Assembly (NCBI GenBank): GCA_963675755.2
Contig: CAXXMD010000003.1
Location: forward strand, 1,408,001 to 1,472,000
Source of the DNA: a bacterium
Lineage (GTDB): Bacteria > Zhuqueibacterota > Zhuqueibacteria > Residuimicrobiales > Krinioviventaceae
Direction of reading: 5' to 3'
Length of the DNA: 64,000 nucleotides
Shown here: piece after piece, positions 25,961 to 59,756 of the stretch
How positions within the stretch are numbered: position 1 is the first letter of the stretch
Layout of the letters: every line of letters begins with the position of its first letter
Notes under the pieces: generated by a model
The model's input: only the letters and a program-made list of their open reading frames with translations
What the model was told of the DNA's origin: nothing
The model's database searches: none
Made by a program: the position numbers and the translations under genes

Positions 25961-25993
25961 TGATCATGACAGAGATAATCTCTGTCACGATCA
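25961..25993. repeat. Family-B REP-like palindrome, copy 1
   Basis: TGATCATGACAGAGAT-A-ATCTCTGTCACGATCA. Confidence 0.9.
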
Positions 25994-26072
25994 TATTTTG
26001 AGTAAACATTAAGTTAGGCATGTTTTTCTTATTTATCTCTCTTTTGCTCAAAAAAATTGCATAAAATACTTG

Positions 26073-26176: not shown

Positions 26177-28150
26177 ATGAAACAGTTACTATTTGTTGTA
26201 TTTTCCGTCTTAATCATTACATTTTGTTCAAGCTGCAACCAAAATCCCAATTCCCTCAAAATAAATTATGCGCGTTCCGAAAACAGAGAGTCCTGGCGGC
26301 ATCATCCGGTACTGGGTGATCCTTCTTTTGATACTTTTGAGCACAATACGGAGAATCCGGTCTACACCGGGGTACCCGGACTGGAATGGCCGGTAAACGG
26401 ATTCCTGTTCGAGGACCCGGTGAGTAAAAACTGGTATATCTATGTCGGGAATTACTCCCAGGGATATGGAATGGGACCGGACAAAATACACCAGTGTACC
26501 ATCTTTCGATCAACAAATCGCGGTAAGAACTGGGAATTTTTGGGTCCCATCTTTACAAAAGAGCCCTTTTATTTTAATGGTGATATTATCCCCGTCAAAA
26601 ATGCGCCTGATGTTTCGGTTGTATATGATAACGGGCGATACCACATGGCTTATGACTGGGCCAGTGCTGACGCGGACTGGAAAACGATCAAAGACGGTAA
26701 ATCCGGGGCGGGTTATGCGTGGAGCGATAGCCCGGAGGGTCCCTTTCACCGCACTCCTGAACCGCTTATCCGTAACGGTCGGCAATTCAACAATCCGATA
26801 TACCAAAAATACGATCGCTTTTACGCGTCTACCCTCGTCCGGCGGCAACATGACTGGCTGCTGTTGACCATAATCGATTCGGGGCATTATTTTGCGTGGG
26901 GACTTGTGGGTTCTACTGCTAAAAATCCGGAAGGTCCTTACAGCGAACCGGTTCCCCTGTTTCATGTAGAGGGAAACACCTTTCAGCCTCCGTTAATGGA
27001 GTATTTCCCCTCCTTTGTTCATGACGGTTGGATCTATGCTCCATCTACTTCTGTTGCGAACAATCGAAATTATCAGATGATGCAGCGGGTGCCGATTGAA
27101 CAGGCAATGGACCCAAAGGCCTGGGAGCTCTGGCAGGCAGGATCAGTGTGGCACGCTCTGCCGGTACCCAATGAATACCACGGCATCTGGGGCCAGACCC
27201 TTACCGGCTTTGTAGATGAAAATAATACTTTTCAGGTCATGTTTCCCAGCCGCACAAAAGACAATCTTGGGACTATAAACATTGCATCCCGGCCCTGGGA
27301 GCAGCCCTATAACAAACAGGGTTTCACCCTCAGCAGTCACGAGGGTCCATCTCTCACCCTGATAAAAAAAGAATACCAAGATTTCAGACTCGAAACCTCC
27401 TTTACATTAACCGGCAGCGCGACATTTTTCTGGGCGCATACTGCACCTCTCGGTCCGAACAAACCGCAGAGCGGGGCCAATGTACATCCAATATCCATGA
27501 CCCGTTACAACGGATTCTCTCTTTCCGACAGCTCCTGGCAGGTTATCTCTGTGGATGAATTCGGGAATGCGCATCAAATCGCATCCGGACTGATCGATAA
27601 AAGAACAAAACATCAACTGGATATTGATCAAAAAGATGATCTTTTGAAAATAACTTTAGACAATACACTCCTATGGCAGAATAGCATGAAAAGCCAATCC
27701 GGGAAAATCGGGTTACTGCTCGATAAACACAGTAACCTGAAGGTAAACTCTTTTGAGGTGACCGGCAAGGCAAAACCAGGCGTGACTACCCTGCTCTATA
27801 CGGAAGGCTTGTTAGGTGCGGGACAATCTATGCATGATTGGGAAAATGACGAATCCCCGTATTTCAGGTACGACATAGGGGCCATCTCAAAAGCGGAGAA
27901 CCAGGGGCGCATCAAATGGAATTATCACGGCAGCGGGTTCACGCTCTGGTCTCCCAAAGGTCCGAAATTCGGCAGTGCGGAGGTCTTTTTTGACGGAGTA
28001 AAAAAGGGCACCGTTGATCTGTACGCACCATCGGGAACGACGTCGGCTCCGGTTTTTACGTTAAAAGATGTGCCGGTTGGGTATCATGCAATCGTTGTGG
28101 AAAGCAAATCCGGCCGGTTGGTTGTGGATTGTGTTGATGTGATGGATTGA
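26177..28150 (+). CDS. Lipoprotein, probable five-bladed beta-propeller glycoside hydrolase-like (GH43/GH32 clan) with C-terminal beta-sandwich domains
   Basis: Lipobox-like 'FCSSC'; propeller-type repeats 'APDVSVVYDNGRYHMAY', 'YAWSDSPEGPF', 'TAKNPEGPYS'. Family assignment is uncertain. Confidence 0.55.
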   Translation: MKQLLFVVFSVLIITFCSSCNQNPNSLKINYARSENRESWRHHPVLGDPSFDTFEHNTENPVYTGVPGLEWPVNGFLFEDPVSKNWYIYVGNYSQGYGMGPDKIHQCTIFRSTNRGKNWEFLGPIFTKEPFYFNGDIIPVKNAPDVSVVYDNGRYHMAYDWASADADWKTIKDGKSGAGYAWSDSPEGPFHRTPEPLIRNGRQFNNPIYQKYDRFYASTLVRRQHDWLLLTIIDSGHYFAWGLVGSTAKNPEGPYSEPVPLFHVEGNTFQPPLMEYFPSFVHDGWIYAPSTSVANNRNYQMMQRVPIEQAMDPKAWELWQAGSVWHALPVPNEYHGIWGQTLTGFVDENNTFQVMFPSRTKDNLGTINIASRPWEQPYNKQGFTLSSHEGPSLTLIKKEYQDFRLETSFTLTGSATFFWAHTAPLGPNKPQSGANVHPISMTRYNGFSLSDSSWQVISVDEFGNAHQIASGLIDKRTKHQLDIDQKDDLLKITLDNTLLWQNSMKSQSGKIGLLLDKHSNLKVNSFEVTGKAKPGVTTLLYTEGLLGAGQSMHDWENDESPYFRYDIGAISKAENQGRIKWNYHGSGFTLWSPKGPKFGSAEVFFDGVKKGTVDLYAPSGTTSAPVFTLKDVPVGYHAIVVESKSGRLVVDCVDVMD

Positions 28151-28242
28151 GATTCATTTCACTAAAATAAAAAGTCCTGACTAAATACATCAGAGATTAA
28201 GATTATTAAAATCGGGGATTTTTAAAGCATTGAGGTAAAAAT

Positions 28243-29136
28243 ATGAAATTATCAAATCTCATAATATCTACCACTCTTTGTCTATTACTTTTCACATGTA
28301 CTACCGAAAAAAATCCATTATTACCACATGTGAATCAAGGAACCCAACATCTTGATTCTACAAAAGTATATGTTAAAGATGGGATATCTATTAATGTAAA
28401 TTCAATTAAATCTGTTTATAATCTGGACGATACACTAAAAGGTAATCTATCCTTGGTAAACGAGAATAATAACAATGGATTTGATATTCATATTGGAAGT
28501 TATCCCCCGCCAGGCGGATATTATATTATAGATGAAAATGGGGATAGTCTATATTTTAGTGCCAAAATGATAGGGGCAATGGTTTTACGAGAGAATTTAT
28601 TACCAGGTGATTCTTTAAATGTAAATATTAATTGGAACCAGTTAATTTCAATAGCTAACAATAACTCATCAGGATTAAAAATTTTTTCAGGGAATTACAA
28701 ACTACAGGGAAAATTCTGGGGTAATGATACTTTGAAAAATAAAAGTGTTATAAAATGGTTCGAGATAACCGAAGAAGGTGATCCGATATCAATTAAAGCC
28801 CATAGACACTATGAAGTACAAGATTCATTCAAAGTCTCATTAATCATCAGAAACAGAGTAAGCACCAGACAAATCTATACTGTTGAGAATCAGAATACTA
28901 TTGAAATACATTATATGCATTATGGTGAATTAATGTCTAGTCAATATGATGTATTGGAATTAGAGGGTGACAAGTTAGAATTTGATCCAAAATCGGATCA
29001 AACAATTTATACATATTCCATATCAAAACAGGATTCATCACTATCGAAATTAAAAGGGGCTTTTGATTTACATTTTATAATACGTTGTAAAGAAAGAAAC
29101 CTTGAAACAGCAATTGGTGGTATAAATATTTATTGA
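28243..29136 (+). CDS. Hypothetical lipoprotein with Ig-like domains (AT-rich gene)
   Basis: 'LLFTC' lipobox; 'LLPGDSLNVNINWNQ...SGNYKLQG' Ig/BsuPI-like segment; visibly more AT-rich than its neighbours. Confidence 0.7.
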   Translation: MKLSNLIISTTLCLLLFTCTTEKNPLLPHVNQGTQHLDSTKVYVKDGISINVNSIKSVYNLDDTLKGNLSLVNENNNNGFDIHIGSYPPPGGYYIIDENGDSLYFSAKMIGAMVLRENLLPGDSLNVNINWNQLISIANNNSSGLKIFSGNYKLQGKFWGNDTLKNKSVIKWFEITEEGDPISIKAHRHYEVQDSFKVSLIIRNRVSTRQIYTVENQNTIEIHYMHYGELMSSQYDVLELEGDKLEFDPKSDQTIYTYSISKQDSSLSKLKGAFDLHFIIRCKERNLETAIGGINIY

Positions 29137-29175
29137 GTGATATAAATTTATATAAAAAATTAGACACAACTAAAT

Positions 29176-29206
29176 ATCCGTGACAATTTGTGTTATCCGT
29201 GGGCAA
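29176..29206 (-). repeat. Family-A triplet repeat (GxxExxY-associated type)
   Basis: Reverse complement TTGCCCACGGATAACACAAATTGTCACGGAT. Confidence 0.75.
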
Positions 29207-29261
29207 TTTTCTCTTAATTCAAATCCTTATGGTAGTAGAAAATTCCATTTTTAAATGGAGA

Positions 29262-29292
29262 CTTGCCCGGCTCCTCGGAGGTGCCGGGCAAG
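29262..29292. repeat. GC-rich hairpin
   Basis: CTTGCCCGGC...GCCGGGCAAG stem. Confidence 0.6.
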
Positions 29293-29315
29293 ATAACTCC
29301 TATTTGCTAAAATCA

Positions 29316-29369
29316 GCCGGTTACTGAGTGCGAGTCCATTACAGCGGACGAGCGTATCGAAACACCGGC
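29316..29369 (+). repeat. Short relative of the core of the 222-bp family-C element
   Basis: GCCGGT-TACTGAG..CGAGTCC..GGACGAG..GTATCGAA-ACACCGGC shares CTGAG/CGAGTCC/GGACGAG/GTATCGAA with 37889..38110. Confidence 0.7.
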
Positions 29370-29374
29370 GACCT

Positions 29375-29405
29375 GATCGTGACAGAGATAATCTCTGTCA
29401 CGATC
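29375..29405. repeat. Family-B REP-like palindrome, copy 2 (perfect)
   Basis: GATCGTGACAGAGAT-A-ATCTCTGTCACGATC. Confidence 0.92.
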
Positions 29406-29468
29406 GTATTTGGAATTAACAATATTCATATAAATAATTAATTTGTAGAAATTTAGTCACAGTACAAT

Positions 29469-29522
29469 ATCTGTGACAATTCGTGTTATTCGTGGGCAAT
29501 ATTTTTTGTGCTTTGTGGGCAA
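29469..29522 (-). repeat. Family-A triplet repeat plus a partial copy
   Basis: ATCTGTGACAATTCGTGTTATTCGTGGGCAA (close to 29176-29206), followed by TTTGTGCTTTGTGGGCAA. Confidence 0.7.
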
Positions 29523-29569
29523 GTATTTTGCAGCCCATCTGCCAACAGACGGACGGGCTGCAAAGCAAG

Positions 29570-30970
29570 TTATTCTAATCCCGGAACACCCGGTTGGGTG
29601 AGTTTTTCAGCGGTAAAGATCTTGTCGATTTGTTCTTTGGTGAGAATTTCGTCTTCTTCCACAACCTGCAAAATGGTTTTCCCCGTTTTAAGCGATTTCT
29701 TCATCACTTCCGCGGCTTGATCATACCCAATGATCACGTTCAGCACCGTAGCGAGTCCCAGCGTATTTTCGAAAAAGTGACGGGTCTGGTCCTCATTGAC
29801 TTTAATGCCCTTGACTGCTTTTTCCGTAAACGCGGTTACGGCATTGGTCAAGATCTCCATGGAGGTGAGTATATTGTGAATAATCACCGGCATCATTACA
29901 TTCAGCTCCAGCTGTCCGGCCTGTGCCGCCATGGTAACGGTAAAATCATTTCCAATAACCTGAAAACAGACCATATTCAGCATTTCCGCCATTACGGGAT
30001 TCACCTTGCCGGGCATAATAGAAGATCCGGGTTGAACGGCCGGAAGTACAATCTCGTTCATACCGGTATTGGGTCCCGAGCTGAGCAGCCTGAAATCGTT
30101 GGCAATGCGGGTCAGTTCCAACGCACAGGTTTTCAGCGATGCGGAAAACTGGGCAAAGGAGCGCATACTCTGCATGGACTCGAACAGGTTGGCGCTGGCA
30201 CTCAAGGGCGATCCCAGAAAAGCTGCCAATGCCATGGTCACCTGGTGCCGATAATTGGGATGCGTATTGAGACCCGAGCCGGCAGCACTGCCGCCAATTC
30301 CCAGTTCGCGCAGTTCGTCCGATGCGGATTTGACATGTCGAATACATCGGTTCACAGTGCGCGCGTACGCGGCAAATTCCTGTCCCAGGGTCACGGGTAC
30401 GGCATCCTGCAAATGGGTACGGCCGCTCTTTATCACATTCTTAAACTCGTTGGATTTTTGTCCCAGCTCCTCTCCCAGATCATATAATCCTTTGATCAAG
30501 ATGGGCAGGGAGCGGAGAATTGCCAAACGCATGGCGGTTGGAAACACATCGTTAGTAGACTGACCAAAATTAACATGATCATTGGGGTGCACCTTGGCGT
30601 ATTCACCTTTTTTTCCACCCAGCAGTTCTATTGCGCGGTTGGCAATCACTTCATTCGCGTTCATATGATGCGAGGTACCAGCGCCGGCCTGGTACACATC
30701 CACCACAAACTGCTCGTGATACTTGCCTTCCATCACTTCAATAGCGGCTTTTTCTATAGCGTTTCCCAATTCCGGCTTTAACAATCCCAGATCGGTGTTC
30801 ACCCTGGCAGCAGCGGCTTTAATCGCTGCCGTAGCCCAGATAAAATTGGGATGCGCGTGCAGCCCGCTAATGGGAAAATTGTCTACCGCTCGTTGTGTTT
30901 GCACTCCATAATACGCGTCAGCAGGGACCTCCACGGGCCCCAGTGAATCTTTTTCGGTACGGGTTTTCAT
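29570..30970 (-). CDS. aspA: Aspartate ammonia-lyase (aspartase/class II fumarase superfamily)
   Basis: 'GSSIMPGKVNP' signature, 'QAGAGTSHHMNANEVIAN', 'QSTNDVFPTA', 'GRTHLQDAVP', 'GQLELNVM'. fumC cannot be fully excluded. Confidence 0.8.
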   Translation of the reverse strand: MKTRTEKDSLGPVEVPADAYYGVQTQRAVDNFPISGLHAHPNFIWATAAIKAAAARVNTDLGLLKPELGNAIEKAAIEVMEGKYHEQFVVDVYQAGAGTSHHMNANEVIANRAIELLGGKKGEYAKVHPNDHVNFGQSTNDVFPTAMRLAILRSLPILIKGLYDLGEELGQKSNEFKNVIKSGRTHLQDAVPVTLGQEFAAYARTVNRCIRHVKSASDELRELGIGGSAAGSGLNTHPNYRHQVTMALAAFLGSPLSASANLFESMQSMRSFAQFSASLKTCALELTRIANDFRLLSSGPNTGMNEIVLPAVQPGSSIMPGKVNPVMAEMLNMVCFQVIGNDFTVTMAAQAGQLELNVMMPVIIHNILTSMEILTNAVTAFTEKAVKGIKVNEDQTRHFFENTLGLATVLNVIIGYDQAAEVMKKSLKTGKTILQVVEEDEILTKEQIDKIFTAEKLTQPGVPGLE

Positions 30971-30979
30971 GTATCCCTC

Positions 30980-32251
30980 CTATTTGTCTTCCACCTGGTA
31001 ACCGGCATCCTGTACGGCGGTTACCAACTGGTCCCATGCTACCCCATTATCATGATAGACAACAACATTTTTGCTTTTCAGGTCCACTTTTACCTGTTCA
31101 ACGCCCTCTACACCTTCGAGCGCTTTTTGAACATGGCTGACACAATTGTTACAGGTCATATTGGGTACACTGAAATCGCTTTGTTTTTCTGCATGCGGCA
31201 TGGAAACATCCTCTTTTTGTTTATTAAAAAATCTACTGAATTTTAAATTGATATATACCAGCAATCCCACCAACAGAGCTGCTGAACCCAGCTCCAGCCA
31301 GTGCGGCAGCATTTGATGGTGCATATGCTCGGTAAAGGTATAACCCAACTGCCAGCGCGACCAGATAAAGTCAAGCAGCAGCCCCAGTCCCAAACTGGAC
31401 AAAATCAGGGTTACCAGATAAATGGCCGTGGTCTTTTTCCCCAGATACTGGCCAATCACCGTAATGGTTACAGCATTGGTTGCCGGACCCGCCAGCAGCA
31501 ATACAAACGCGGCACCGGGATTCAAGCCCTTCATCATCAATGCGGCGGCAATGGGTATTGAGCCCGTGGCACAAACATACAATGGTACGCTAAACGCCAG
31601 TACAATCAACATGGACTGCCAGGGAGCTGTAAATTTCTCCTGAAAGAAATCTGCCGGAATCAAATACGAGATCAAACCGCCAATTAAAATACCGATCATC
31701 AACCACTTGCCAATCTCGCTGAGCAGATCAATAAACGCGTATTTAAATACCCGTTTGGCTCGTCCGACAAATGAGAGCTTTTCAGGTGCAACCTCTTTAC
31801 CAGTACTGCCCATTGCCTGACCTTCTTCCGGACTCTCCAGCAGGTTCGCCGTCAATCCGGAAAAGATACCGGCGAAAAAACTGGCAATAACCCGGTACAC
31901 GGCAAACACTGGTCCCAGCAAGGAGTAGGTGGCAAATATAGAATCCACTCCTGTTGTGGGTGTGGCGATGAGAAAAGACAATACCGATCCTCTGCTAGCA
32001 CCGGCTTTACGCAATGCCATTGTGGGCGGAATAACACCGCACGAACACAGGGGAAGCGGTATTCCAAACAATGCGGCTTTGACAACCGATCCCATCGAAC
32101 TTTTGCCCAAATGCTTTGCTATCTGTTCCGCTGAAATAAACTCTTTGAGCAGGCCTGCTGCAAGAAATCCGAAAATTAAATACGGTCCCATTTCCGCAAG
32201 CAAATCAAAAGAGCTTTTTAATATGCCATATACAAATTCAAAAACTATCAT
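30980..32251 (-). CDS. SO_0444/ArsP_1-family metal permease with C-terminal HMA domain
   Basis: 'GIPLPLCSCGVIP', 'PLYVCATGSIP', 'LLAGPATN'; C-terminal 'MTCNNC' HMA motif. Confidence 0.9.
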   Translation of the reverse strand: MIVFEFVYGILKSSFDLLAEMGPYLIFGFLAAGLLKEFISAEQIAKHLGKSSMGSVVKAALFGIPLPLCSCGVIPPTMALRKAGASRGSVLSFLIATPTTGVDSIFATYSLLGPVFAVYRVIASFFAGIFSGLTANLLESPEEGQAMGSTGKEVAPEKLSFVGRAKRVFKYAFIDLLSEIGKWLMIGILIGGLISYLIPADFFQEKFTAPWQSMLIVLAFSVPLYVCATGSIPIAAALMMKGLNPGAAFVLLLAGPATNAVTITVIGQYLGKKTTAIYLVTLILSSLGLGLLLDFIWSRWQLGYTFTEHMHHQMLPHWLELGSAALLVGLLVYINLKFSRFFNKQKEDVSMPHAEKQSDFSVPNMTCNNCVSHVQKALEGVEGVEQVKVDLKSKNVVVYHDNGVAWDQLVTAVQDAGYQVEDK

Positions 32252-32255
32252 TTTA

Positions 32256-33215
32256 TTACAATCCTACTTGTTTTATTGCTTCTTTTAACGTTTCTGCCGA
32301 ACGTTGTAATCCCTTTAATTCGGAATCATCAAGCGGCAGTTTGATGCGTTCAACTACACCATTACGGTCCAGCTTTGTGGGTACGCTCAAGCACACATCA
32401 CCAATACCATAGTAATCATCAATCAAACTTGAAACGGTCATGATCGAATTCTGGTCACGCACAATACTCTCTAATATAGTCAAAGTTGCCATTCCAATTG
32501 CGTGATATGTGGCGCCTTTTTTCTCAATCAAGTGATATGCGGCGGTCCTTACTTGTTCAAATATCTCATTACGTGGTATACCTCCGCATTGTTTACTGCA
32601 ATTGTTACAGAAATCATCCAGTTTTACACCACTGATCTGAGCCAAACTCCATACCGCCACTTCGCTGTCTCCATGTTCACCAATAATATATGCATGCACA
32701 TTTCGTGAATCCACTCTACAATGCTGGCTGAGCAGATAACGAAAACGGGCGCTGTCAAGCGAGGTGCCGGACCCAATTACGCGGTTTACCGGATAATCCG
32801 AGAACTTAACTGCTGCATAGGTCAACACATCAACAGGATTTGACACAACGATCAATATAGCATCCTTTGTGTATTGGGTAATCGAAGGGATAATTTTGCT
32901 ATAAATATCCACATTCTTTTTGGTAAGATCCAAACGGGTTTCACCCGGTTTCTGTGCTGCGCCTGCGGTTATTACCACTACATCCGCGCTTGCACAATCC
33001 TCATAGTCGCCCGCATATACATGCGCGGGACGTACATAGGGTAATCCATGACTCATATCTTCGGCCTGGCCCTCAGCCAAACCCCTATTTTGATCTATCA
33101 ACACAATTTCAGATGCCAGTCCACGCATCAATAATGCATAGGCAAAGGTGGAACCCACCTGGCCGGCTCCGACGATACAAACTTTGAGTGAATGTTTACT
33201 GATATCGTTTTTCAT
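32256..33215 (-). CDS. ldh: L-lactate dehydrogenase
   Basis: 'GAGQVG', 'TAGAAQKPGETRLDL' (Gln specificity residue), 'LDSARFR', 'IIGEHGDS'. Confidence 0.95.
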   Translation of the reverse strand: MKNDISKHSLKVCIVGAGQVGSTFAYALLMRGLASEIVLIDQNRGLAEGQAEDMSHGLPYVRPAHVYAGDYEDCASADVVVITAGAAQKPGETRLDLTKKNVDIYSKIIPSITQYTKDAILIVVSNPVDVLTYAAVKFSDYPVNRVIGSGTSLDSARFRYLLSQHCRVDSRNVHAYIIGEHGDSEVAVWSLAQISGVKLDDFCNNCSKQCGGIPRNEIFEQVRTAAYHLIEKKGATYHAIGMATLTILESIVRDQNSIMTVSSLIDDYYGIGDVCLSVPTKLDRNGVVERIKLPLDDSELKGLQRSAETLKEAIKQVGL

Positions 33216-33358
33216 TATATTTTACCTTTCCATTTATTCGATCCAGAACCATTACAACAACATTTAAAAGCGCATTAATCCATTGATTTTATGAACGAAA
33301 TGCTTGATAGTTTCAAAAAATTCATTAATTTAAATGTTGGTTTTTTAGAGGTAATACA

Positions 33359-33979
33359 ATGGTACGACTGCATGTAAATCCAATCAATCCGCAAAAGAGA
33401 CACATCGAAAGCACTGCTGAAGTGCTTCGCGAAGGAGGTCTCATTATCTATCCCACAGATACGGTATATGGTCTGGGATGCGATCTCTATAACAAAAAAG
33501 CTGTTGAACGTATTTACCAGATCAAGGGGATGAAAAAAAAGAAAACCCTTAGCTTTATTTGTCCCGATTTGAAAGACATTTCCCGTTACGCCCACGTATC
33601 CACCCCGGCGTACAAGATCATGCGGCGTCTGTTACCGGGTCCGTATACGTTTATTTTACCGGCAACCCGGGAAGTACCCAAAATCCTGCTGGAAAACAGA
33701 AAAACCATCGGTATCCGTGTTCCGGATAACACTATCTGCCACGACTTGCTCGACGCTTTTGGCGGTCCCATTATCAGTACCAGTGCGGCATTGCCGGATC
33801 AGCCCTATCAGAACGATCCTGATGATATTGAAGACCATTTTCAACATTTTGTAGATATATTTCTGGATGCTGGTGAAGGGGGACTTGATCCCTCAACAAT
33901 ATTGGATATGAATGGAGACACCTTTGAGGTCATCCGCGAGGGAAAAGGATATGACAGCGAGGTATTTCGCTCGCTGTAA
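33359..33979 (+). CDS. Sua5/YciO/YrdC-family protein (YciO-like)
   Basis: 'IIYPTDTVYGLGCD', 'LLPGPYTFIL', 'TIGIRVPD', 'ISTSA'. Confidence 0.9.
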   Translation: MVRLHVNPINPQKRHIESTAEVLREGGLIIYPTDTVYGLGCDLYNKKAVERIYQIKGMKKKKTLSFICPDLKDISRYAHVSTPAYKIMRRLLPGPYTFILPATREVPKILLENRKTIGIRVPDNTICHDLLDAFGGPIISTSAALPDQPYQNDPDDIEDHFQHFVDIFLDAGEGGLDPSTILDMNGDTFEVIREGKGYDSEVFRSL

Positions 33980-34459
33980 CTAGACCTCTACAATTTCTGC
34001 AGTATTGCTTTGGGTGTCCCACAATGCCAGGGTACATTTACCGGTCAACCAACCACATAATTCACCCGGATTCACAACCAGGGTATCTTTTTCTTTACTC
34101 ACTTCAATTTCATGAATATGTCCGTACAATACCAGATCATATTTCTCAGATTTGCGCAAATCATCCATTACTATAGGTGCATGGAGCATAAGTACTTTGC
34201 GTCCGTCAAGGGTGATTTCGTGCGGTGGATCAAAAATGATCCCTTTGAACATAGAGCTGAGCCCCAGGCGTTCACCATCATTGTTACCGAACACAATAGT
34301 TAGCGGAGCATCCAGGTTTTTCAAAGCCTTGTTCACAAAGGGTGCAACCAGATCTCCGGCATGCAGCACATGGTCTACTTTTTTCTTATTACAAAATTCA
34401 ACTGCCCGATGGAGTGCGTCCATATTATCGTGACTGTCGGACATGAGCGCTACTTTCAT
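33980..34459 (-). CDS. YfcE/MJ0936-type metallophosphoesterase
   Basis: 'SDSHDN', 'HAGD', 'GNND', 'GHIH', 'VNPGE'. Confidence 0.92.
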   Translation of the reverse strand: MKVALMSDSHDNMDALHRAVEFCNKKKVDHVLHAGDLVAPFVNKALKNLDAPLTIVFGNNDGERLGLSSMFKGIIFDPPHEITLDGRKVLMLHAPIVMDDLRKSEKYDLVLYGHIHEIEVSKEKDTLVVNPGELCGWLTGKCTLALWDTQSNTAEIVEV

Positions 34460-34658
34460 ATCAATTTCCTCAGGTTTATTCTTTTCTTACTGCATACAAC
34501 AACACAGTACCGTGGAATCTTTCAATAAAATATTGGAATAGTAAATATAATATTTATATTACAGAAATGAAAAAATAATTTCCATTTTAACGGTTTGATA
34601 TCATTAACCATAGATAAAAGCCAATAAAGAACATTGGCTACATAAAGATTTTTATAAT

Positions 34659-34690
34659 TAGCCACGGATTGACACAGATCAACACGGATT
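34659..34690 (+). repeat. Family-A triplet repeat upstream of the GxxExxY gene
   Basis: TA-GCCACGGATT-GACACAGATC-AACACGGATT: three 10-bp units with a CAC(A/G)GAT core. Confidence 0.88.
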
Positions 34691-34758
34691 CTATTAACGA
34701 TTTATTGTTGCTCTTTCTAGAAAGATTTTGATTTAACAAATAATAATTGGGGGATTAA

Positions 34759-35121
34759 ATGGAACATAAAGAAATTACAGAATCCATTATTGGCTCAGCT
34801 TTTGAAGTTTATAATACGCTTGGATTCGGGTTCCTTGAAAAAGTTTATCAAAAAGCAATGCAGGTTGAATTGATTAAAAGAGGTCATCAGGCAGAAACCG
34901 AACACCCTGTCAAAGTATTTTATAAAAACATAACTGTAGGTGAGTATTTTGTAGATTTATTTGTTGATAATCTGGTTATTGTCGAATTCAAAATTGCTGC
35001 TATCTATAATTCTAAAGATGAGAGCCAATTATTAAATCTTTTAAAAGCAACAGGAATCAAAGTAGGATTACTCATCAATTTTGGAAAAACAGAAGTAGAA
35101 TTCAAAAGATTTGTATATTAA
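34759..35121 (+). CDS. GxxExxY protein (PD-(D/E)XK nuclease-like)
   Basis: 'GFGFLEKVYQKAM' (GxxExxY), 'VDLFVDNLVIVEFK' (D..ExK), 'QLLNLLKATG..VGLLINFG'. Confidence 0.93.
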   Translation: MEHKEITESIIGSAFEVYNTLGFGFLEKVYQKAMQVELIKRGHQAETEHPVKVFYKNITVGEYFVDLFVDNLVIVEFKIAAIYNSKDESQLLNLLKATGIKVGLLINFGKTEVEFKRFVY

Positions 35122-35173
35122 ATCTGTATCATTCTGCTTGTCTGTATTTGATGAATGTAGGTCTGTAACCCTA

Positions 35174-35405
35174 AAAATTTTTTTTTAGCTACGGATTAAC
35201 ACGGATCTTTACAGATAAAAACATAACATATTCCTTGGAATTTTTGTTGCTTGTTTTTATTAACGACCACAAATTGAATATCACTTGAATCTTTTTTATC
35301 TCGTGTGGTAGAGAATATCTGGTTTTCTATAAGTTCAAGTAATTTCAGGATTAAATTGTTTTTTATCCGTGTTAATCCGTGAAAATCTGTGGCTAAAAAT
35401 TTTTT
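35174..35405. repeat. REPIN-like inverted doublet of family-A repeats
   Basis: Forward TAGCTACGGATTAACACGGATCTTTACAGATAAAA (35186-35220) and reverse TTTTATCCGTGTTAATCCGTGAAAATCTGTGGCTA (35361-35395), each flanked outward by A/T tracts. Confidence 0.85.
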
Positions 35406-35502
35406 AAATTAATAATACCTCAAGATCATTGTATTAAATTCATTTTAATGATATAAAGAGAATAATTATAACATCTTGATAAATAAACCCAGGAGAGCAA
35501 GC

Positions 35503-37716
35503 ATGAAATATTTCTACGCTATACTTTTGATACTGTTCACAGCATTTTCACTATACGCAATAGTACCGGGATCGGTAACAGACGATCCCTTTATTCAGGA
35601 AGTCCATATACCGTTTCCACTGGATAATGATGCCGCCAACGACGTTCGTTCGGTTGCAGTCGATACAGATGGCAAGATCTGGGCCGCAACCCGGGAAGGC
35701 ATCTATTCTCTCGAGTCAGGTACCTGGAAGTCCTGGTCTACTGGAGAAAACAAGGGGCCCGCTTATGATATTTCTGTCGCAAAAGACGGCTCTCTCTGGA
35801 TCGGTGCCTGGAACGGTGCATATCTTTTAAAAAATGACAACCTCTCCAAAATTGAGGGCATCGACTCGCCGGTTAGCGTGATTCGTGCATACGACGAGGT
35901 TATCGCATTAGGACCCAAAGGCCAGTGGAAAATCACCGGCAACAGCGCAAAGGCACTGAATTGGGATATAGCCCTGTCAGCAAGGGACATGATCAAAGAT
36001 GTGAATAAAGGATACTGGATCAGCACAGATGTCGGCTTGTTTTACAAAACAGAGTCCGATACAAAATTCATTCAAAATGTTGAAAACCTGGTGGGTAACG
36101 CCCTGACTTCTCTTGCCTGGTCGCAAGACAAAACCTTGTGGATTGGCGGACTGGGTGGTATTACCCTCTATCGTAATGGCAAACGTGTAGGTCACCTGAC
36201 CCACAAAGAAGGATTGATCAGTATTGACGTATACTGTCTTGAAAGCGCACCGGATGGCGCCATGTGGGTGGGCACTAAACAGGGTATTGCCCGATACAAC
36301 AATCTGGAGTGGTCCATGCGTTACAGCCGAAGATGGCTGTTGGACAATGAAGTTCGGGATATTGCTTTTGATGGGGCAGGTAATGCCTGGGTTGCCACTG
36401 CCGGTGGTGTGAGTAAAATTGAACGCCGTACAATAACCATGGCACAAAAAGCCGACTATTACCAGCGTATTCTGGAAGATCGTCATATACGTCCCCCCTA
36501 TATTGTAGAAAAAATTAACCTGATGTCTCCCGGAGATACCACCAAATGGGAACCCCGCGATGATGACAATGACGGACAGTACACCAGCATGTACCTGGCC
36601 ATGGAAAGCTACCGCTACCAGGTTACCAATAACCCAAAAGCCAAAGACAATGCTAAAAAAGCATTTGATGCTTTGAAATATTTACAAACCGTAACCGAGA
36701 CAGATGGTTTTTTTGCACGCACAGTGGTTCCTGTTGAATGGAACCGCATGATGGATCCCAACCATGTCTTTACTCCGCAGGAACAGGCGGACAGGCTGGT
36801 AGACAATGCCCGCCAGAAATATGTTCCGGAATTGTGGCGGTTGTCCAGTGACGGCAAATGGTACTGGAAAGGCGATACAAGCAGCGATGAAGTAACCGGC
36901 CACATGTATGGCTATTTCATTTATTATGATCTCATTGCAAAATATGATAAAAAAGAAAAGAAACGCGTTGCCGACCATGTCTGCAAAATTGTGGACTATA
37001 TCATTGATGGCGGTTACAATTTTATCGATATTGACGGCACCCATACCAAATGGGGTGTATGGGCACCTGATAAACTGAACGGTTCTCCTGATTGGTCTAC
37101 GGAGCAATATATCAACTCTACCGAACTGCTTTCTTATCTCAAACTGGCATATGTCGTCAGTGGTGACCAAAAATATCAGGACAAATATCTGGAGCTGATC
37201 CACAAACACGGCTACCTGGAAAATGCCCGTCACGCACGTTCAACCAATCCTACATTCATCACCCATATTGACGATGAGCTGTTGGCTCTGGCTTATCCCG
37301 TATTGCTAATGTATGAAAAAGATCCCGAGATCCTCAAAGTCTATCGTCAGAGCGTAAACCGCTGGCACCGCACCAATGAAGCGGACAACAGCCCGTATTT
37401 CAACTTTACCTACGCGGCGCTGACCGGTTACGATCCCAATCTTGACAAATCCATTGCCTACCTGCGTGACGTATCGCTCGACCTGGTGGGCTGGGATATG
37501 GATCTGAGCAAGCGTGAAGATCTGAACATCATCCGTTACCCCGAGTTTGAGAACCAGATGATTGACCGCATGGTCCCCCCCAGTGAATTGATGGTTCTGC
37601 GCTGGGACCGGAATCCCTGGTACGCCAAACGCGGCTATGGCGGCCGTATTGAAAGCGACGGCGTTTTCTGGCTGCTGCCCTACTGGATGGGCCGCTATTA
37701 CGGATTGATCAAGTAG
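35503..37716 (+). CDS. Secreted protein: two-component-regulator-type beta-propeller repeats plus C-terminal (alpha/alpha) glycosidase-like domain
   Basis: RBS AGGAG; signal peptide; repeated 'D.DG.IW..T..G' blades; acidic motifs 'DDDNDGQYTSMYLA' and 'WKGDTSSDEVTGH'. Confidence 0.75.
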   Translation: MKYFYAILLILFTAFSLYAIVPGSVTDDPFIQEVHIPFPLDNDAANDVRSVAVDTDGKIWAATREGIYSLESGTWKSWSTGENKGPAYDISVAKDGSLWIGAWNGAYLLKNDNLSKIEGIDSPVSVIRAYDEVIALGPKGQWKITGNSAKALNWDIALSARDMIKDVNKGYWISTDVGLFYKTESDTKFIQNVENLVGNALTSLAWSQDKTLWIGGLGGITLYRNGKRVGHLTHKEGLISIDVYCLESAPDGAMWVGTKQGIARYNNLEWSMRYSRRWLLDNEVRDIAFDGAGNAWVATAGGVSKIERRTITMAQKADYYQRILEDRHIRPPYIVEKINLMSPGDTTKWEPRDDDNDGQYTSMYLAMESYRYQVTNNPKAKDNAKKAFDALKYLQTVTETDGFFARTVVPVEWNRMMDPNHVFTPQEQADRLVDNARQKYVPELWRLSSDGKWYWKGDTSSDEVTGHMYGYFIYYDLIAKYDKKEKKRVADHVCKIVDYIIDGGYNFIDIDGTHTKWGVWAPDKLNGSPDWSTEQYINSTELLSYLKLAYVVSGDQKYQDKYLELIHKHGYLENARHARSTNPTFITHIDDELLALAYPVLLMYEKDPEILKVYRQSVNRWHRTNEADNSPYFNFTYAALTGYDPNLDKSIAYLRDVSLDLVGWDMDLSKREDLNIIRYPEFENQMIDRMVPPSELMVLRWDRNPWYAKRGYGGRIESDGVFWLLPYWMGRYYGLIK

Positions 37717-37734
37717 TTATTATTTCTTTTTTTC

Positions 37735-37813
37735 ATCCGTGTCGATCTGTGAGGATCTGTGGCTATTATAAAATTGTTTTCAGCCACGGATTGTCACAGA
37801 TCATCACGGATAA
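37735..37813. repeat. Family-A inverted doublet (reverse then forward copy, short spacer)
   Basis: ATCCGTGTCGATCTGTGAGGATCTGTGGCTA ... CAGCCACGGATTGTCACAGATCATCACGGATAA, 19 nt after a stop codon. Confidence 0.88.
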
Positions 37814-37888
37814 TACCTAAAACAACCTCCTTTGTAGCCTCTGCTGCTTTAGTATTTTTTATCCTTTTTCACACTTTTTTAAATGACA

Positions 37889-38110
37889 TGATCACCGGGT
37901 GTCTATATTCCAGACGGAATGATACCACCGGACATGTATCCGGTTCTCCGGGGCGAATGTCCCGATGTTAACTCCGCCCGGACCCTGAGTTCGAACGAGT
38001 CCGCTGTCTCTTAGCGGACGAGTGAGAGTATCGAAGGGCCGGGAGGAAAAACAATATGAATATGATCTCCAGGTATGAATTCTTGCCGGCACTCTGGTAC
38101 CGGACGATCA
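37889..38110 (+). mobile_element. 222-bp MITE/REPIN-like element (family C), copy 1
   Basis: Same length as, and near-identical in the centre to, 40183..40404; ends TGATCACCGG...CCGGACGATCA. Confidence 0.7.
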
Positions 38111-38200
38111 AGGTACAACTATCAGACACCTGACAAGGCCTTCGCTTAAATCATCAACCCTAACAAAACCATAATCTATCAATTAGCATTCAAACCTAAA

Positions 38201-38277
38201 TGCCCCGTTAGGGACAAAATATTTATAGAACTGTAAAAATGAGAATTCGCATGCCGTCAGGTATGCAATATCGTAGA
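38201..38277 (+). repeat. Pair of short REP-like hairpins (family D)
   Basis: TGCCCC-GTTA-GGGACA-AAATATTTATAGA and GCATGCC-GTCA-GGTATGC-AATATCGTAGA share a GT(T/C)A loop and an AATAT..TAGA tail. Confidence 0.55.
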
Positions 38278-38449
38278 GTTTTATCATATATAAAAACCGT
38301 GAAATCCTGTTTTTTTTCATATTGACTATTATATTCTCAATCATTAATTTTTAAAAATGGTGGGATTAAAACAACTTTTCATGGGTCTCTAATTCTCTTA
38401 AATCATTAAATTTTAATACCGTACTATTTTTATAAACAAAAGGATTTCC

Positions 38450-40117
38450 ATGACAAAACCTATTTTTCTTGTTATTTGCCTGCTTGTCTTATCGGTCAAT
38501 CTCTATGCAATAGATACTTTTCAATTAAAACAGATTTTACCTCGCAGTCAATGGAGCGAATATTCCCCGGACAAACCCCATCGTGCTGTAATCATGGACG
38601 ATGAAGGGAATACATTTGTAGCTAGTCAAAAATTAGGGCCCTTGCATATAATCCTTCAAAAATTAGATCCTGAGGGAAATCCTATATGGGCTGACCCCAA
38701 TTCAGGATTGGCATTGGTAGATACAATGATAGGATACGATGCTGCTTTTGCGCCCGCTTTAGCGAGCGATGGCCACGGAGGGCTATTTGTTTTTTATGCC
38801 TATGGAAAATCAAGCTATTATGAAGGAGAGTTTTATCATTCTTTTACAACATATTTACAACATTTAAATGAAAATGGCGTTAAAAGCTGGGGGAACCGTG
38901 GAATTTCAATACATGATTCCACCTATTCTTATGTTCGTGATATAGCACCTGATGGAAAGGGTGGTGTTTATTTAATGTATACAATTTCGAGTGATAATAG
39001 TTGTATTTACGGAGGAACATCATTACAACATGTTGATAATACAGGCACACTTTTATTTTCAAAACCAGGTAAAGTATTGATGCCATGCGATTCATCAAGT
39101 GTTACAAATTTGACTTCGGATGGATTAAATGGTTCTTATATATACAATAATGGAAGTTACCTTCAACAAATAGATATAAATGGGGAGTTTATTTTTCCAG
39201 AGCTTTTTATAGATATGGGGATTTATCTAAGGAGAAAATGGCTGTTTCCTGTTAATGATGGATTAATCTTTGTTGGAAATGAAAGTACAAGAAATCCACG
39301 GAAATTAAAAATTCAAAAAATAGATAAACAGGGTAATTTACTTTTAGGGGCCAATGGAGCAAGTTATACCTGGCCGGATTCGATAGATTTTTACCCTGTA
39401 ATCACTCTGAAAAATGACAGCAGCCTTTCTGTTTTTTCAGGAATCTATGGTCAGAATATATATTTTGATGATGAAATTCATTTTAACGCACCTAATAAAG
39501 TAATTCAATTTGATCAACTCCAGCCTTGGAACATCTTTGCTACTTATTCAAGGAAATTTGGAAATTTAATTCTTTATGTTGCAGAAGACTTTACAAAAGG
39601 ACGAGATATATTGAAATTACAAAAAATAGATGATAATGGCCAAATCCCGTGGGGCATTGATGGTGTTACAATATGCGAAACAAATGATTTTCTTCTTTTT
39701 ACACACTCTATCATTCAAATTAACGAAGATGCTGGAAAAGCAATAATTTTTTTAGAATTAGGTGAAGGAATTCATATAGCAACTGTCGATTTGGAAACAG
39801 GTACATGGATTGCTGAGCAGCAAGAGAATAACCATATCGTGCCCGTTACCTATAATATTTCCAGTTATCCTAATCCATTTACCAATTTAATTCAAATTGA
39901 CATCCAACCTTTTAAAACAACGAATGATATAAAATCCGTCAAGATTTTTAATATTCTCGGAAAGGAGGTCAAAGACATTACACCAAAACAAATTTCAACA
40001 CACACATTTTCATGGGATGGAACAGATGATTCCGGTCAGCGGGCGGCTGCCGGTATCTATTTTGTTCAAATTACCGCAAAACAAACATTCACTCAAAAGA
40101 TACTGAAACTGAAATAA
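38450..40117 (+). CDS. Secreted beta-propeller-like protein with FlgD/T9SS-like CTD (AT-rich gene)
   Basis: Signal peptide; repeats 'SDG.GG.......Q..D..G...WG..G'; CTD 'SYPNPF...IFNILG...WDGTDDSG...AAGIYFVQ...QKILKLK'. Confidence 0.82.
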   Translation: MTKPIFLVICLLVLSVNLYAIDTFQLKQILPRSQWSEYSPDKPHRAVIMDDEGNTFVASQKLGPLHIILQKLDPEGNPIWADPNSGLALVDTMIGYDAAFAPALASDGHGGLFVFYAYGKSSYYEGEFYHSFTTYLQHLNENGVKSWGNRGISIHDSTYSYVRDIAPDGKGGVYLMYTISSDNSCIYGGTSLQHVDNTGTLLFSKPGKVLMPCDSSSVTNLTSDGLNGSYIYNNGSYLQQIDINGEFIFPELFIDMGIYLRRKWLFPVNDGLIFVGNESTRNPRKLKIQKIDKQGNLLLGANGASYTWPDSIDFYPVITLKNDSSLSVFSGIYGQNIYFDDEIHFNAPNKVIQFDQLQPWNIFATYSRKFGNLILYVAEDFTKGRDILKLQKIDDNGQIPWGIDGVTICETNDFLLFTHSIIQINEDAGKAIIFLELGEGIHIATVDLETGTWIAEQQENNHIVPVTYNISSYPNPFTNLIQIDIQPFKTTNDIKSVKIFNILGKEVKDITPKQISTHTFSWDGTDDSGQRAAAGIYFVQITAKQTFTQKILKLK

Positions 40118-40182
40118 TTCTTATTAGAGGGATTATAAGGTTTAAAATATTATATTGCTTTTTTTATTACCAATCACAAATA

Positions 40183-40404
40183 TGATCACCGGGAGTATTT
40201 ATGCCTAGCGGAATGATACTACCGGACATGTATCCGGTTCTCCGGGACGAATGTCCCGATGTTAACTCCGCCCGGACCCTGAGTTCGAACGAGTCCGCTG
40301 TCTCTTAGCGGACGAGAGAGAGTATCGAAGGGCCGGAAGTAAAAACAATATGAATATGATCTCCAGGAATGAATTACACCCGACACTATAGTACCGGGTG
40401 ATCA
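40183..40404 (+). mobile_element. 222-bp MITE/REPIN-like element (family C), copy 2
   Basis: TGATCACCGGG...CCGGGTGATCA termini (10/11 inverted match); direct repeat of 37889..38110. Confidence 0.7.
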
Positions 40405-59724: not shown

Positions 59725-59756
59725 TAGCCACAGATAAACACAGATTCACGCTGATT
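59725..59756 (+). repeat. Family-A triplet repeat (solo copy)
   Basis: TA-GCCACAGATA-AACACAGATT-CACGCTGATT. Confidence 0.8.

Follow-up and report, generated by a model that had tools for sequence, protein, structure and literature searches.

Genes of the GxxExxY nuclease family lie between inward-facing arrays of short phased repeats, and gene and arrays together very probably form a mobile cassette. We describe this cassette as a left arm, a GxxExxY gene and a right arm, spanning about 460–490 bp in what appear to be intact copies. Each arm comprises two to four phased 7-bp words whose sequence follows the clade of the protein, and genome comparisons indicate that the content between the arms is exchanged between species. 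Gene-less relatives are many and take the form of short hairpins, divergent arm pairs, solo arms and arms around other cargo. The cassette is real, widespread and apparently undescribed.

The window, by which we mean the whole 64,000-nt stretch analysed (G000:C3:1408001–1472000), comes from a source genome of 6.48 Mb (G000). Its 120-aa ORF at 34759–35121 (+) was assigned by profile search to GxxExxY (TIGR04256, E = 2e-37) and PDDEXK_3 (PF13366, E = 3e-37), with 128 bits over the whole model against curated cut-offs of 35 and 22, and its helix 1 has T7/E8. The catalytic residues E27, D66, E76, K78 and Q90 are all intact. The gene sits between inward-facing CACRGAT arrays with a spacing of about 10 bp. 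The left arm (34660–34689, +) consists of AGC and the words CACGGAT, CACAGAT and CACGGAT joined by the linkers TGA and CAA, the triplet occupying 34663–34689 and its last base lying 69 nt ahead of the ATG. Immediately outside it, alignment to a sister species (G001) reveals a decayed outward-facing arm stub (TGGCT) with an A/T-rich spacer (34630–34659), which we read as the left-hand member of a divergent arm pair resembling the one at 37735–37811. A decayed right arm (35122–35167, −; ATCTGTA, TTCTGCT and GTCTGTA at 35122–35146 and a further GTCTGTA at 35161) abuts the stop codon, the same placement as the intact right arms of close relatives. Next comes a gene-less unit, made of a left arm with the words TACGGAT, CACGGAT and TACAGAT (35187–35216, +; words from 35190), a 148-bp non-coding interior (35217–35364) and an intact right arm (35365–35394, −; words to 35391) that is the outer boundary of the locus and is identical in the sister species. 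A sequence-only reading of this DNA had described the gene, a forward triplet, a degenerate reverse copy after the stop and an inverted doublet, all of which were confirmed in place. Because residue 94 is L in the window protein, where 130 relatives have mostly Y (91) or E (34), and because its right arm is decayed, the window copy may be ageing.

Contigs of sequencing run X1 showed zero differences from the window over 33000–37983; run X4 carries the same joint as G001 and was not counted as independent. No excised-circle joint was seen in the run contigs, an assembly form that drops rare variants. A promoter and terminator scan stayed at chance level, promoters near the locus not being in excess, and an Rfam search over 28000–39000 returned nothing near the gathering score; two miRNA matches, weak and far below that score, were rejected.

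Elsewhere in the window, the divergent pair at 37735–37811 is gene-less, has a 23-nt spacer and is kept in the sister species with linker changes and one word change. Solo arms are present at 29176–29204 (−, after a lipoprotein-like gene), 29469–29497 (−) and 59726–59755 (+; CACAGAT, CACAGAT and CGCTGAT), the last of which is missing at the orthologous site of the sister species. The recurring TAGCC-CACRGAT unit proposed from sequence alone holds at 37735, 37781 and 59725, but the copies at 29176 and 29469 are of a sister CACGAAT type (GCC-CACG(G/A)AT-AA-CAC(A/G)AAT), in agreement with the arms of another GxxExxY paralogue at C3:1577676. We discounted a match at 4300, which sits in an ORF and is probably due to chance. 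With up to two mismatches, CACRGAT-N3-CACRGAT matches the window 15 times versus 1.18 expected, and 0 of 100 shuffles reached 15.

Genome-wide, G000 contains 79 CACRGAT arrays, nearly all gene-less and intergenic, and 104 arrays of at least three units when all word variants are included, versus 5 in a reversed-sequence control. Although ORFs of at least 150 aa make up 87% of the genome, just 10 of 121 arrays fall inside them and 111 outside, in line with the expectation that the repeats are mostly intergenic. Spacers of divergent pairs measured 23–29 nt in 10 of 13 cases and convergent arms are 20 to 1456 bp apart, which makes the divergent pair the tightly spaced unit; clusters of alternating orientation also occur. 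The genome carries eight GxxExxY genes, flanked by words of the types CACRGAT, CRCAGAT, CACGAAT, CACRRAG, CACGAAG and CGCAGAG, and the inward array is missing at just one of the eight.

Comparison with G001, a complete genome about 92% identical to G000, places the exchange of DNA between the arms. At the window locus the sister species still has the outer flank, the left arm, shortened by one 10-bp unit, and the right arm at 35365. Of the interior, 668 bp have given way to 535 bp of unrelated sequence containing a 118-aa lipoprotein-like ORF that has no Pfam match. The exchanged stretch is bounded on the left by the inner end of the left arm and on the right by a point about 27 nt interior to the right arm, near 35338. 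A second G000 GxxExxY paralogue is missing from G001 with its arms kept, two G001 GxxExxY genes are missing from G000, and at a third site the left arm is shared and the GxxExxY gene is different. Among 77 array clusters, 37 were comparable, with 5 unchanged, 17 showing a break with both flanks conserved and 15 aligning on one side; as these counts cover array clusters only, they are descriptive. On our reading, the comparative data show that interiors are swapped between arms, a behaviour outside what had been proposed from the window sequence. About 95 nt around the right arm (window 35345–35440 versus L016:12631–12726) are identical and the neighbouring genes about 92% so.

Two further differences between these genomes were observed near the locus. 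A 32-kb block (window 29372–61106 versus G001:C1:6076778–6118632) is inverted, both ends lying at GATCGTGACAG-type hairpin repeats, and G001 has at one end a transposase-like ORF that we take to be of IS256 type. At window 25967–26032, where G000 has a hairpin repeat only, G001 (C1:6122325–6123583) has a 1.26-kb insert with a secreted-protein-like ORF, ending in a CACGAAT-type arm.

The association of gene and arms extends well beyond this genome. We gathered 188 gene loci from the same phylum, other phyla and metagenomes, a set biased to relatives of the query. Inward arrays were present on both sides at 97 of the 162 loci with full flanks and on at least one side at 130, compared with 1 of 150 control ORFs, so the suggested enrichment of repeats beside GxxExxY genes was borne out. 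A motif-free inverted-repeat score of at least 16 was reached by 106 of the 162 loci versus 2 of 150 controls; a direct-orientation score was also reached by 59 of 162, as would be seen if many cassettes had a hairpin on either side. In a later locus set, the fraction with both-side arrays was lower (27/57). Searches that started from arrays found a GxxExxY gene within 1.2–1.5 kb in 0/13, 1/28 and 0/45 loci; the gene is rarely near arrays and therefore gene-less units, already noted in the sequence-only reading, dominate.

GxxExxY genes were found in 154 of 167 genomes of the phylum and, among the fetched loci, in at least eight other phyla. Repeats occurring equally in genomes without the gene had been named as evidence against a link between the two, and arrays are nonetheless present in 8 of 13 genomes with no detected gene; yet density is higher where a gene of the cognate clade is found. 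Over 166 genomes, CACRGAT density was 2.83 per Mb with a near-clade gene (n = 61) versus 0.54 without (n = 105), an effect that held under within-family permutation (p = 0.022) and was absent for the other clade (p = 0.96). The corresponding comparison for G-ending words gave no within-family effect (p = 0.34). Two genomes with 130 and 143 CACRGAT matches (G145 and G146, 91% and 95% complete), the most after G003, have other-clade genes only.

Arms are also carried by viruses. No GxxExxY relative was found with this query in 50,697 annotated phage records; an alignment search matched one viral contig, and there were matches to seven plasmid records. Viral contigs have mostly solo arms, a second arm lying no more than 120 nt away in 11 of 39 cases, and 26 of 39 arms start no more than 40 nt past a stop codon (control 3/39). 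At 8 of the 39 phage arms (L292–L336) the upstream stop codon ends one base ahead of the first word, and therefore the arm's own end supplies the stop.

The positions of cassettes in other genomes mark them as insertions between genes, often within housekeeping operons. Cassettes of close relatives lie in the pheS|pheT, atpA|atpG, nuoH|nuoJ, cdsA|dxr, brxC|pglX and deoC|ccmP junctions, and at atpA|atpG the heptamer cassette is missing in 24 of 24 relatives. We collected 34 rows for a junction in Pontiella and, after omitting one duplicate and two rows without the downstream gene, labelled 31 by eye. Three were arm-less (0, 1 and 23 nt), four were filled with full cassettes of 457–462 nt, one was internally deleted and others held hairpins of 57–97 nt with the words CACTAAT, CACGGAA, CACRGAT or CACAAAA or a 7-nt-periodic repeat. 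Together with atpA|atpG, this junction provides the filled and empty sites that the sequence-only reading had called for.

Allele labels were scattered on a FastTree phylogeny of the Pontiella flanks (23 changes versus 22.9 shuffled), the supported (starred) branches force five changes for the CACTAAT allele, and one allele is single-copy, at that junction, in 5/5 genomes. Because the labels are scattered and the allele is single-copy at the site, we conclude that filled, empty and degenerate alleles of one orthologous site have been exchanged between lineages. The flanks showed no clear gradient of co-conversion, the last 30 nt upstream giving p = 0.04 as 1 of 16 windows. CACTAAT hairpins at other sites have different loops (four listed); given this variation among sites, the loops may have been captured from elsewhere. 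One such loop (L437, G178:C1, near 94270) contains GGTTCGAATCC, which to us resembles a tRNA T-loop. In four genomes (L369, L371, L372 and L384), the Pontiella junction that elsewhere has heptamer arms is taken up by 7-nt-periodic hairpins. An ORF that we presume to be a four-helix-bundle gene lies in one atpA|atpG junction (L411), and these cases suggest that two cassette families use the same junction sites.

Several lines of evidence bear on the joining points of incoming DNA. Of the 53 composite units in genus g3, 25 start 5–8 nt past an exact word (18 at exactly 7), 22 of these being lone words. The junctions share the upstream consensus AGCCACGGAT-NNN-C, beyond which the DNA is unrelated, and the opposite ends of the units are ragged. 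This junction rule could instead be the work of an enzyme that moves the hairpin at the unit head. Between sister species, linkers differed more than flanks (18/86 versus 120/1200 differences, p = 0.003) and words were not significantly better conserved than flanks (25/315 versus 120/1200, p = 0.28), over 15 pairs of which some are perhaps paralogues. Taken together, the g3 rule, the swap points at the window locus and the divergence of linkers suggest that breaks fall on the inner side of the word; a test of breakpoints within the genome, with 5 + 5 informative pairs, had too little power. A GCGGCC-TTT-GGCCGC hairpin heads composite units with arms of any word type (L264–L291 and L337–L366) and has 61 matches in G003, 80 in G013, 20 in G016 and 1 in G018.

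The alignment-based model of the window protein (pLDDT 96), used in preference to a discarded single-sequence fold (pLDDT 40), predicts a minimal PD-(D/E)XK fold. Its nearest folds are Cas4, lambda-type exonucleases and Hjc; the best Foldseek match was Cas4 SSO0001 (E = 2e-4), a VIA comparison gave Z 8.6 and rmsd 3.4 with 97 aligned to 3ijm, and no solved structure related by sequence was found. The protein shares with Cas4, RecB-family nucleases, lambda exonuclease and Hjc (4ic1, 3syy and 2wiw) a PD-(D/E)XK core with D..ExK and what we take to be a QxxxY-like motif; it differs from them in its 12–20% identity, its length of 120 aa and its lack of Fe-S cluster cysteines. Residues E27, D66, E76 and K78 are conserved in 223, 227, 215 and 223 of 230 sequences, respectively, and G24, E27 and K78 are invariant columns. 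PD-(D/E)XK enzymes are known to hydrolyse DNA and not to join strands, and therefore mobility probably needs host recombination.

Arms accompany catalytic residues. An inward array is present in 171 of 223 loci that retain at least three of the four residues, and a single-copy paralogue beside type III pantothenate kinase that lacks E27 and ExK has arms at 0 of 6 loci, so activity appears to go with arms. This dead GxxExxY-like gene (L522–L526 and L539; for example, L524:1471–1932) lies between the type III pantothenate kinase gene and the gene upstream of a TPM-domain gene. Arm-less, it is fixed there in several families of the phylum and reads as a domesticated copy.

We consider it likely that the protein recognises the words. 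On a quick maximum-likelihood tree of 130 proteins, word labels changed 22 times versus 58.8 when shuffled, as expected if the repeat co-varies with protein clade. A branch with support of 99 separates 37 rows, all with G-ending words and a period of 8–10, from T/A-ending words with two G-ending exceptions. Kinship alone can also produce such a match, as arms inherited in cis with the gene would. Base 5 of the word is more informative, switching about 21 times across the tree: in one clade its best predictor column was residue 8, whereas residues 7 and 8 came out best in the other. A rule fixed beforehand (E/D/G8 to G; N/Y/H/S/K8 to A) gave 9/3 versus 7/21 on 42 new loci (p = 0.005), and a version refined post hoc (T7 or E/G8) fits 157 of 171. 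With a tree built without helix 1, independent pairs were concordant in 5.5 cases and discordant in 0.0 (median p = 0.0625, not significant), and columns 8, 9, 7 and 10 ranked 1, 2, 8 and 9 of 118 for tree-corrected concordance. These results are suggestive of helix-1 residues 7–8 tracking word base 5. The T7/E8 pair of the window protein occurs with G5 words, and Glu–cytosine and Asn–adenine are familiar protein–DNA contacts.

In our preferred model, towards which we lean with some reserve, the nuclease of a mobile cassette would bind its phased words in DNA and nick them on the side facing the interior, host recombination then swapping the interiors. Copies of the 120-aa nuclease would bind at the phased words, lined up on one face of the DNA duplex, with helix-1 residues 7–10 reading at least word base 5. 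The nick or cut would fall to the inner (3′) side of the word. With no joining activity expected of the enzyme, host recombination would repair the break from another arm-bearing DNA; this repair would swap the interior, be it gene, cargo gene or short loop, and leave the outer arm in place. Units would enter new sites at single word-like sequences beside stop codons. At the window locus, where the right arm is decayed, the outer boundary would be supplied by the arm at 35365. The process would be a homing-like 'nick and copy' with its target carried by the element itself. The step of nicking plus host repair is, on balance, the version we favour, although it leaves unexplained how the cassette spares its own arms, homing predicts co-conversion, of which the Pontiella flanks gave no clear gradient, and the array-rich genomes G145 and G146 lack a cognate gene.

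Other explanations account for parts of these data. One is RAYT-like cut-and-paste on single-stranded DNA, in which an arm hairpin with 7-bp stems and internal loops is excised and reinserted with the gene in its loop. Short-loop gene-less hairpins are common, as this would predict, alternating-orientation clusters occur, linkers of paired arms match slightly above shuffled (0.56 versus 0.49; 1/1000 shuffles), and the close empty/filled pair L394/L395, which is ambiguous for target-site duplication, differs by little beyond the hairpin. We nonetheless judge it unlikely: the fold is PD-(D/E)XK and not HUH, the tight unit in G000 is the divergent pair while convergent distances vary widely, interiors change while outer arms stay, and the same allele recurs at one site only. 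Arms acting in RNA is a distinctly less probable account, whereby pairing in the operon message would loop out the insert, bringing the upstream stop near the downstream start, and the protein may process the stem. The arms inevitably pair in a transcript (local fold z = −4.5), they lie within about 7–30 nt of the upstream stop in most co-oriented loci and fill whole junctions whose empty state is 0–1 nt, and tRNA splicing endonucleases appear, albeit low, in the fold-match list. However, arm mismatches on the sense strand of 64 cassettes were G-U 29 times and A-C 22 times (p = 0.40), 44% of linker positions are mismatched, arms on viral contigs are mostly solo, and pairing needs no fixed word at about one helical turn. 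Because mismatches show no G-U over A-C bias and linkers match little above shuffled, the data argue for the arms being sequence-specific DNA sites rather than an RNA stem; neither a G-U excess nor an Rfam match near the gathering score was found.

That GxxExxY merely hitch-hikes between arms mobilised by a different enzyme or by ordinary host recombination is improbable. Array-first searches seldom met the gene, other cargo is found between arms and array-rich genomes are sometimes without a cognate gene, all of which a passenger would explain. Starting from the gene, though, arms are usual in all phyla sampled, different clades have different words even when they share a genome, helix-1 residues track the word and the dead paralogue is without arms. 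An intergenic location and words phased at roughly one helical turn would also suit operators of a host regulator or nucleoid protein, an idea to which we give very little credence: only 5 of 37 clusters are spanned unchanged between sister species, arrays sit at gene 3′ ends and follow the nuclease clade instead of the host, and promoters are not in excess near the locus.

Compared with known systems, the cassette combines familiar and unfamiliar traits. Free-standing homing endonucleases include PD-(D/E)XK types such as I-Ssp6803I, and the cassette resembles them as a nuclease-only mobile gene with filled, empty and degenerate alleles at one orthologous site and, presumably, in its dependence on host repair. 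Unlike them, its presumed target is a repeated word in its own arms, it occupies very many different sites and has gene-less units, and its flanks showed no clear co-conversion gradient. Intervening sequences that bear an ORF (four-helix-bundle cassettes) have 7-nt-periodic arms and likewise place a small ORF between complementary repeat arms and between operon genes, but protein, word and period are different, and the arm mismatches seen here show no RNA bias. As for insertion sequences and MITEs, inverted ends are present and a transposase is absent from the unit, with outer-flank identity falling to 0.58 at −3 and 0.35 at −4, which makes no firm case for a TA target-site duplication.

The closest parallel in organisation is with REP/REPIN and RAYT (TnpA-REP) and with TIRtrons/TIRYT, in which a gene is flanked by inverted repeat copies and the repeat is also dispersed alone (PMC3733652, PMC3479197). 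GxxExxY genes are likewise flanked by inverted copies of a repeat also found alone, and the available descriptions of REPtrons and TIRtrons share with our data head–head, tail–tail and tandem groupings, intergenic position and mutual specificity of gene and repeat. As set out in one report, RAYTs are marked by an HUH motif and catalytic tyrosine of IS200/IS605 type and REPs are palindromes of 20–40 bp with a GTAG or CGTC tail (PMC3733652). Against those descriptions, the enzyme here is a minimal PD-(D/E)XK protein where RAYTs are HUH/Y1 transposases, the arm is no palindrome but a run of phased 7-bp words in direct orientation whose linkers are free, there are several gene copies per genome with fast turnover, and the interior between arms is exchanged. 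The analogy to RAYTs drawn in the sequence-only reading is therefore limited to organisation, since the protein has a PD-(D/E)XK and not an HUH fold. In the text available to us, PDDEXK_3 is listed as 'Unknown' with multiple transfers (PMC3424549) and GxxExxY is mentioned in passing (10.1101/2021.01.26.428298). A literature search, with subscription papers and supplements outside its scope, returned no account of repeats beside GxxExxY genes.

GxxExxY/PDDEXK_3 is a large family, and with arms as candidate substrate, a predicted cut side and a two-residue specificity hypothesis its function becomes directly testable. As a tentative and rather bolder proposal, GxxExxY proteins may be widespread miniature site-specific nucleases with a changeable code, in which helix-1 residues 7–10 face a 7-bp word read three times in phase, driving integrase-free cassette exchange. 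If this were true, arms would make operon junctions into landing pads at which the nuclease gene, cargo, short loops and rival word types are swapped between species. Such cassettes would be a new class of prokaryotic mobile DNA needing neither transposase nor integrase, would account for a dispersed repeat family in many under-studied phyla and their phages, and would provide a nuclease of 120 aa whose natural variants differ in specificity.

Close to the locus we also observed another cassette-like repeat, unrelated to the arms. It is a 60-bp direct repeat at window positions 37888–37947 and 40181–40241, followed by a longer stretch of shared sequence, and the gene blocks that it delimits are not the same in G000 and G001.
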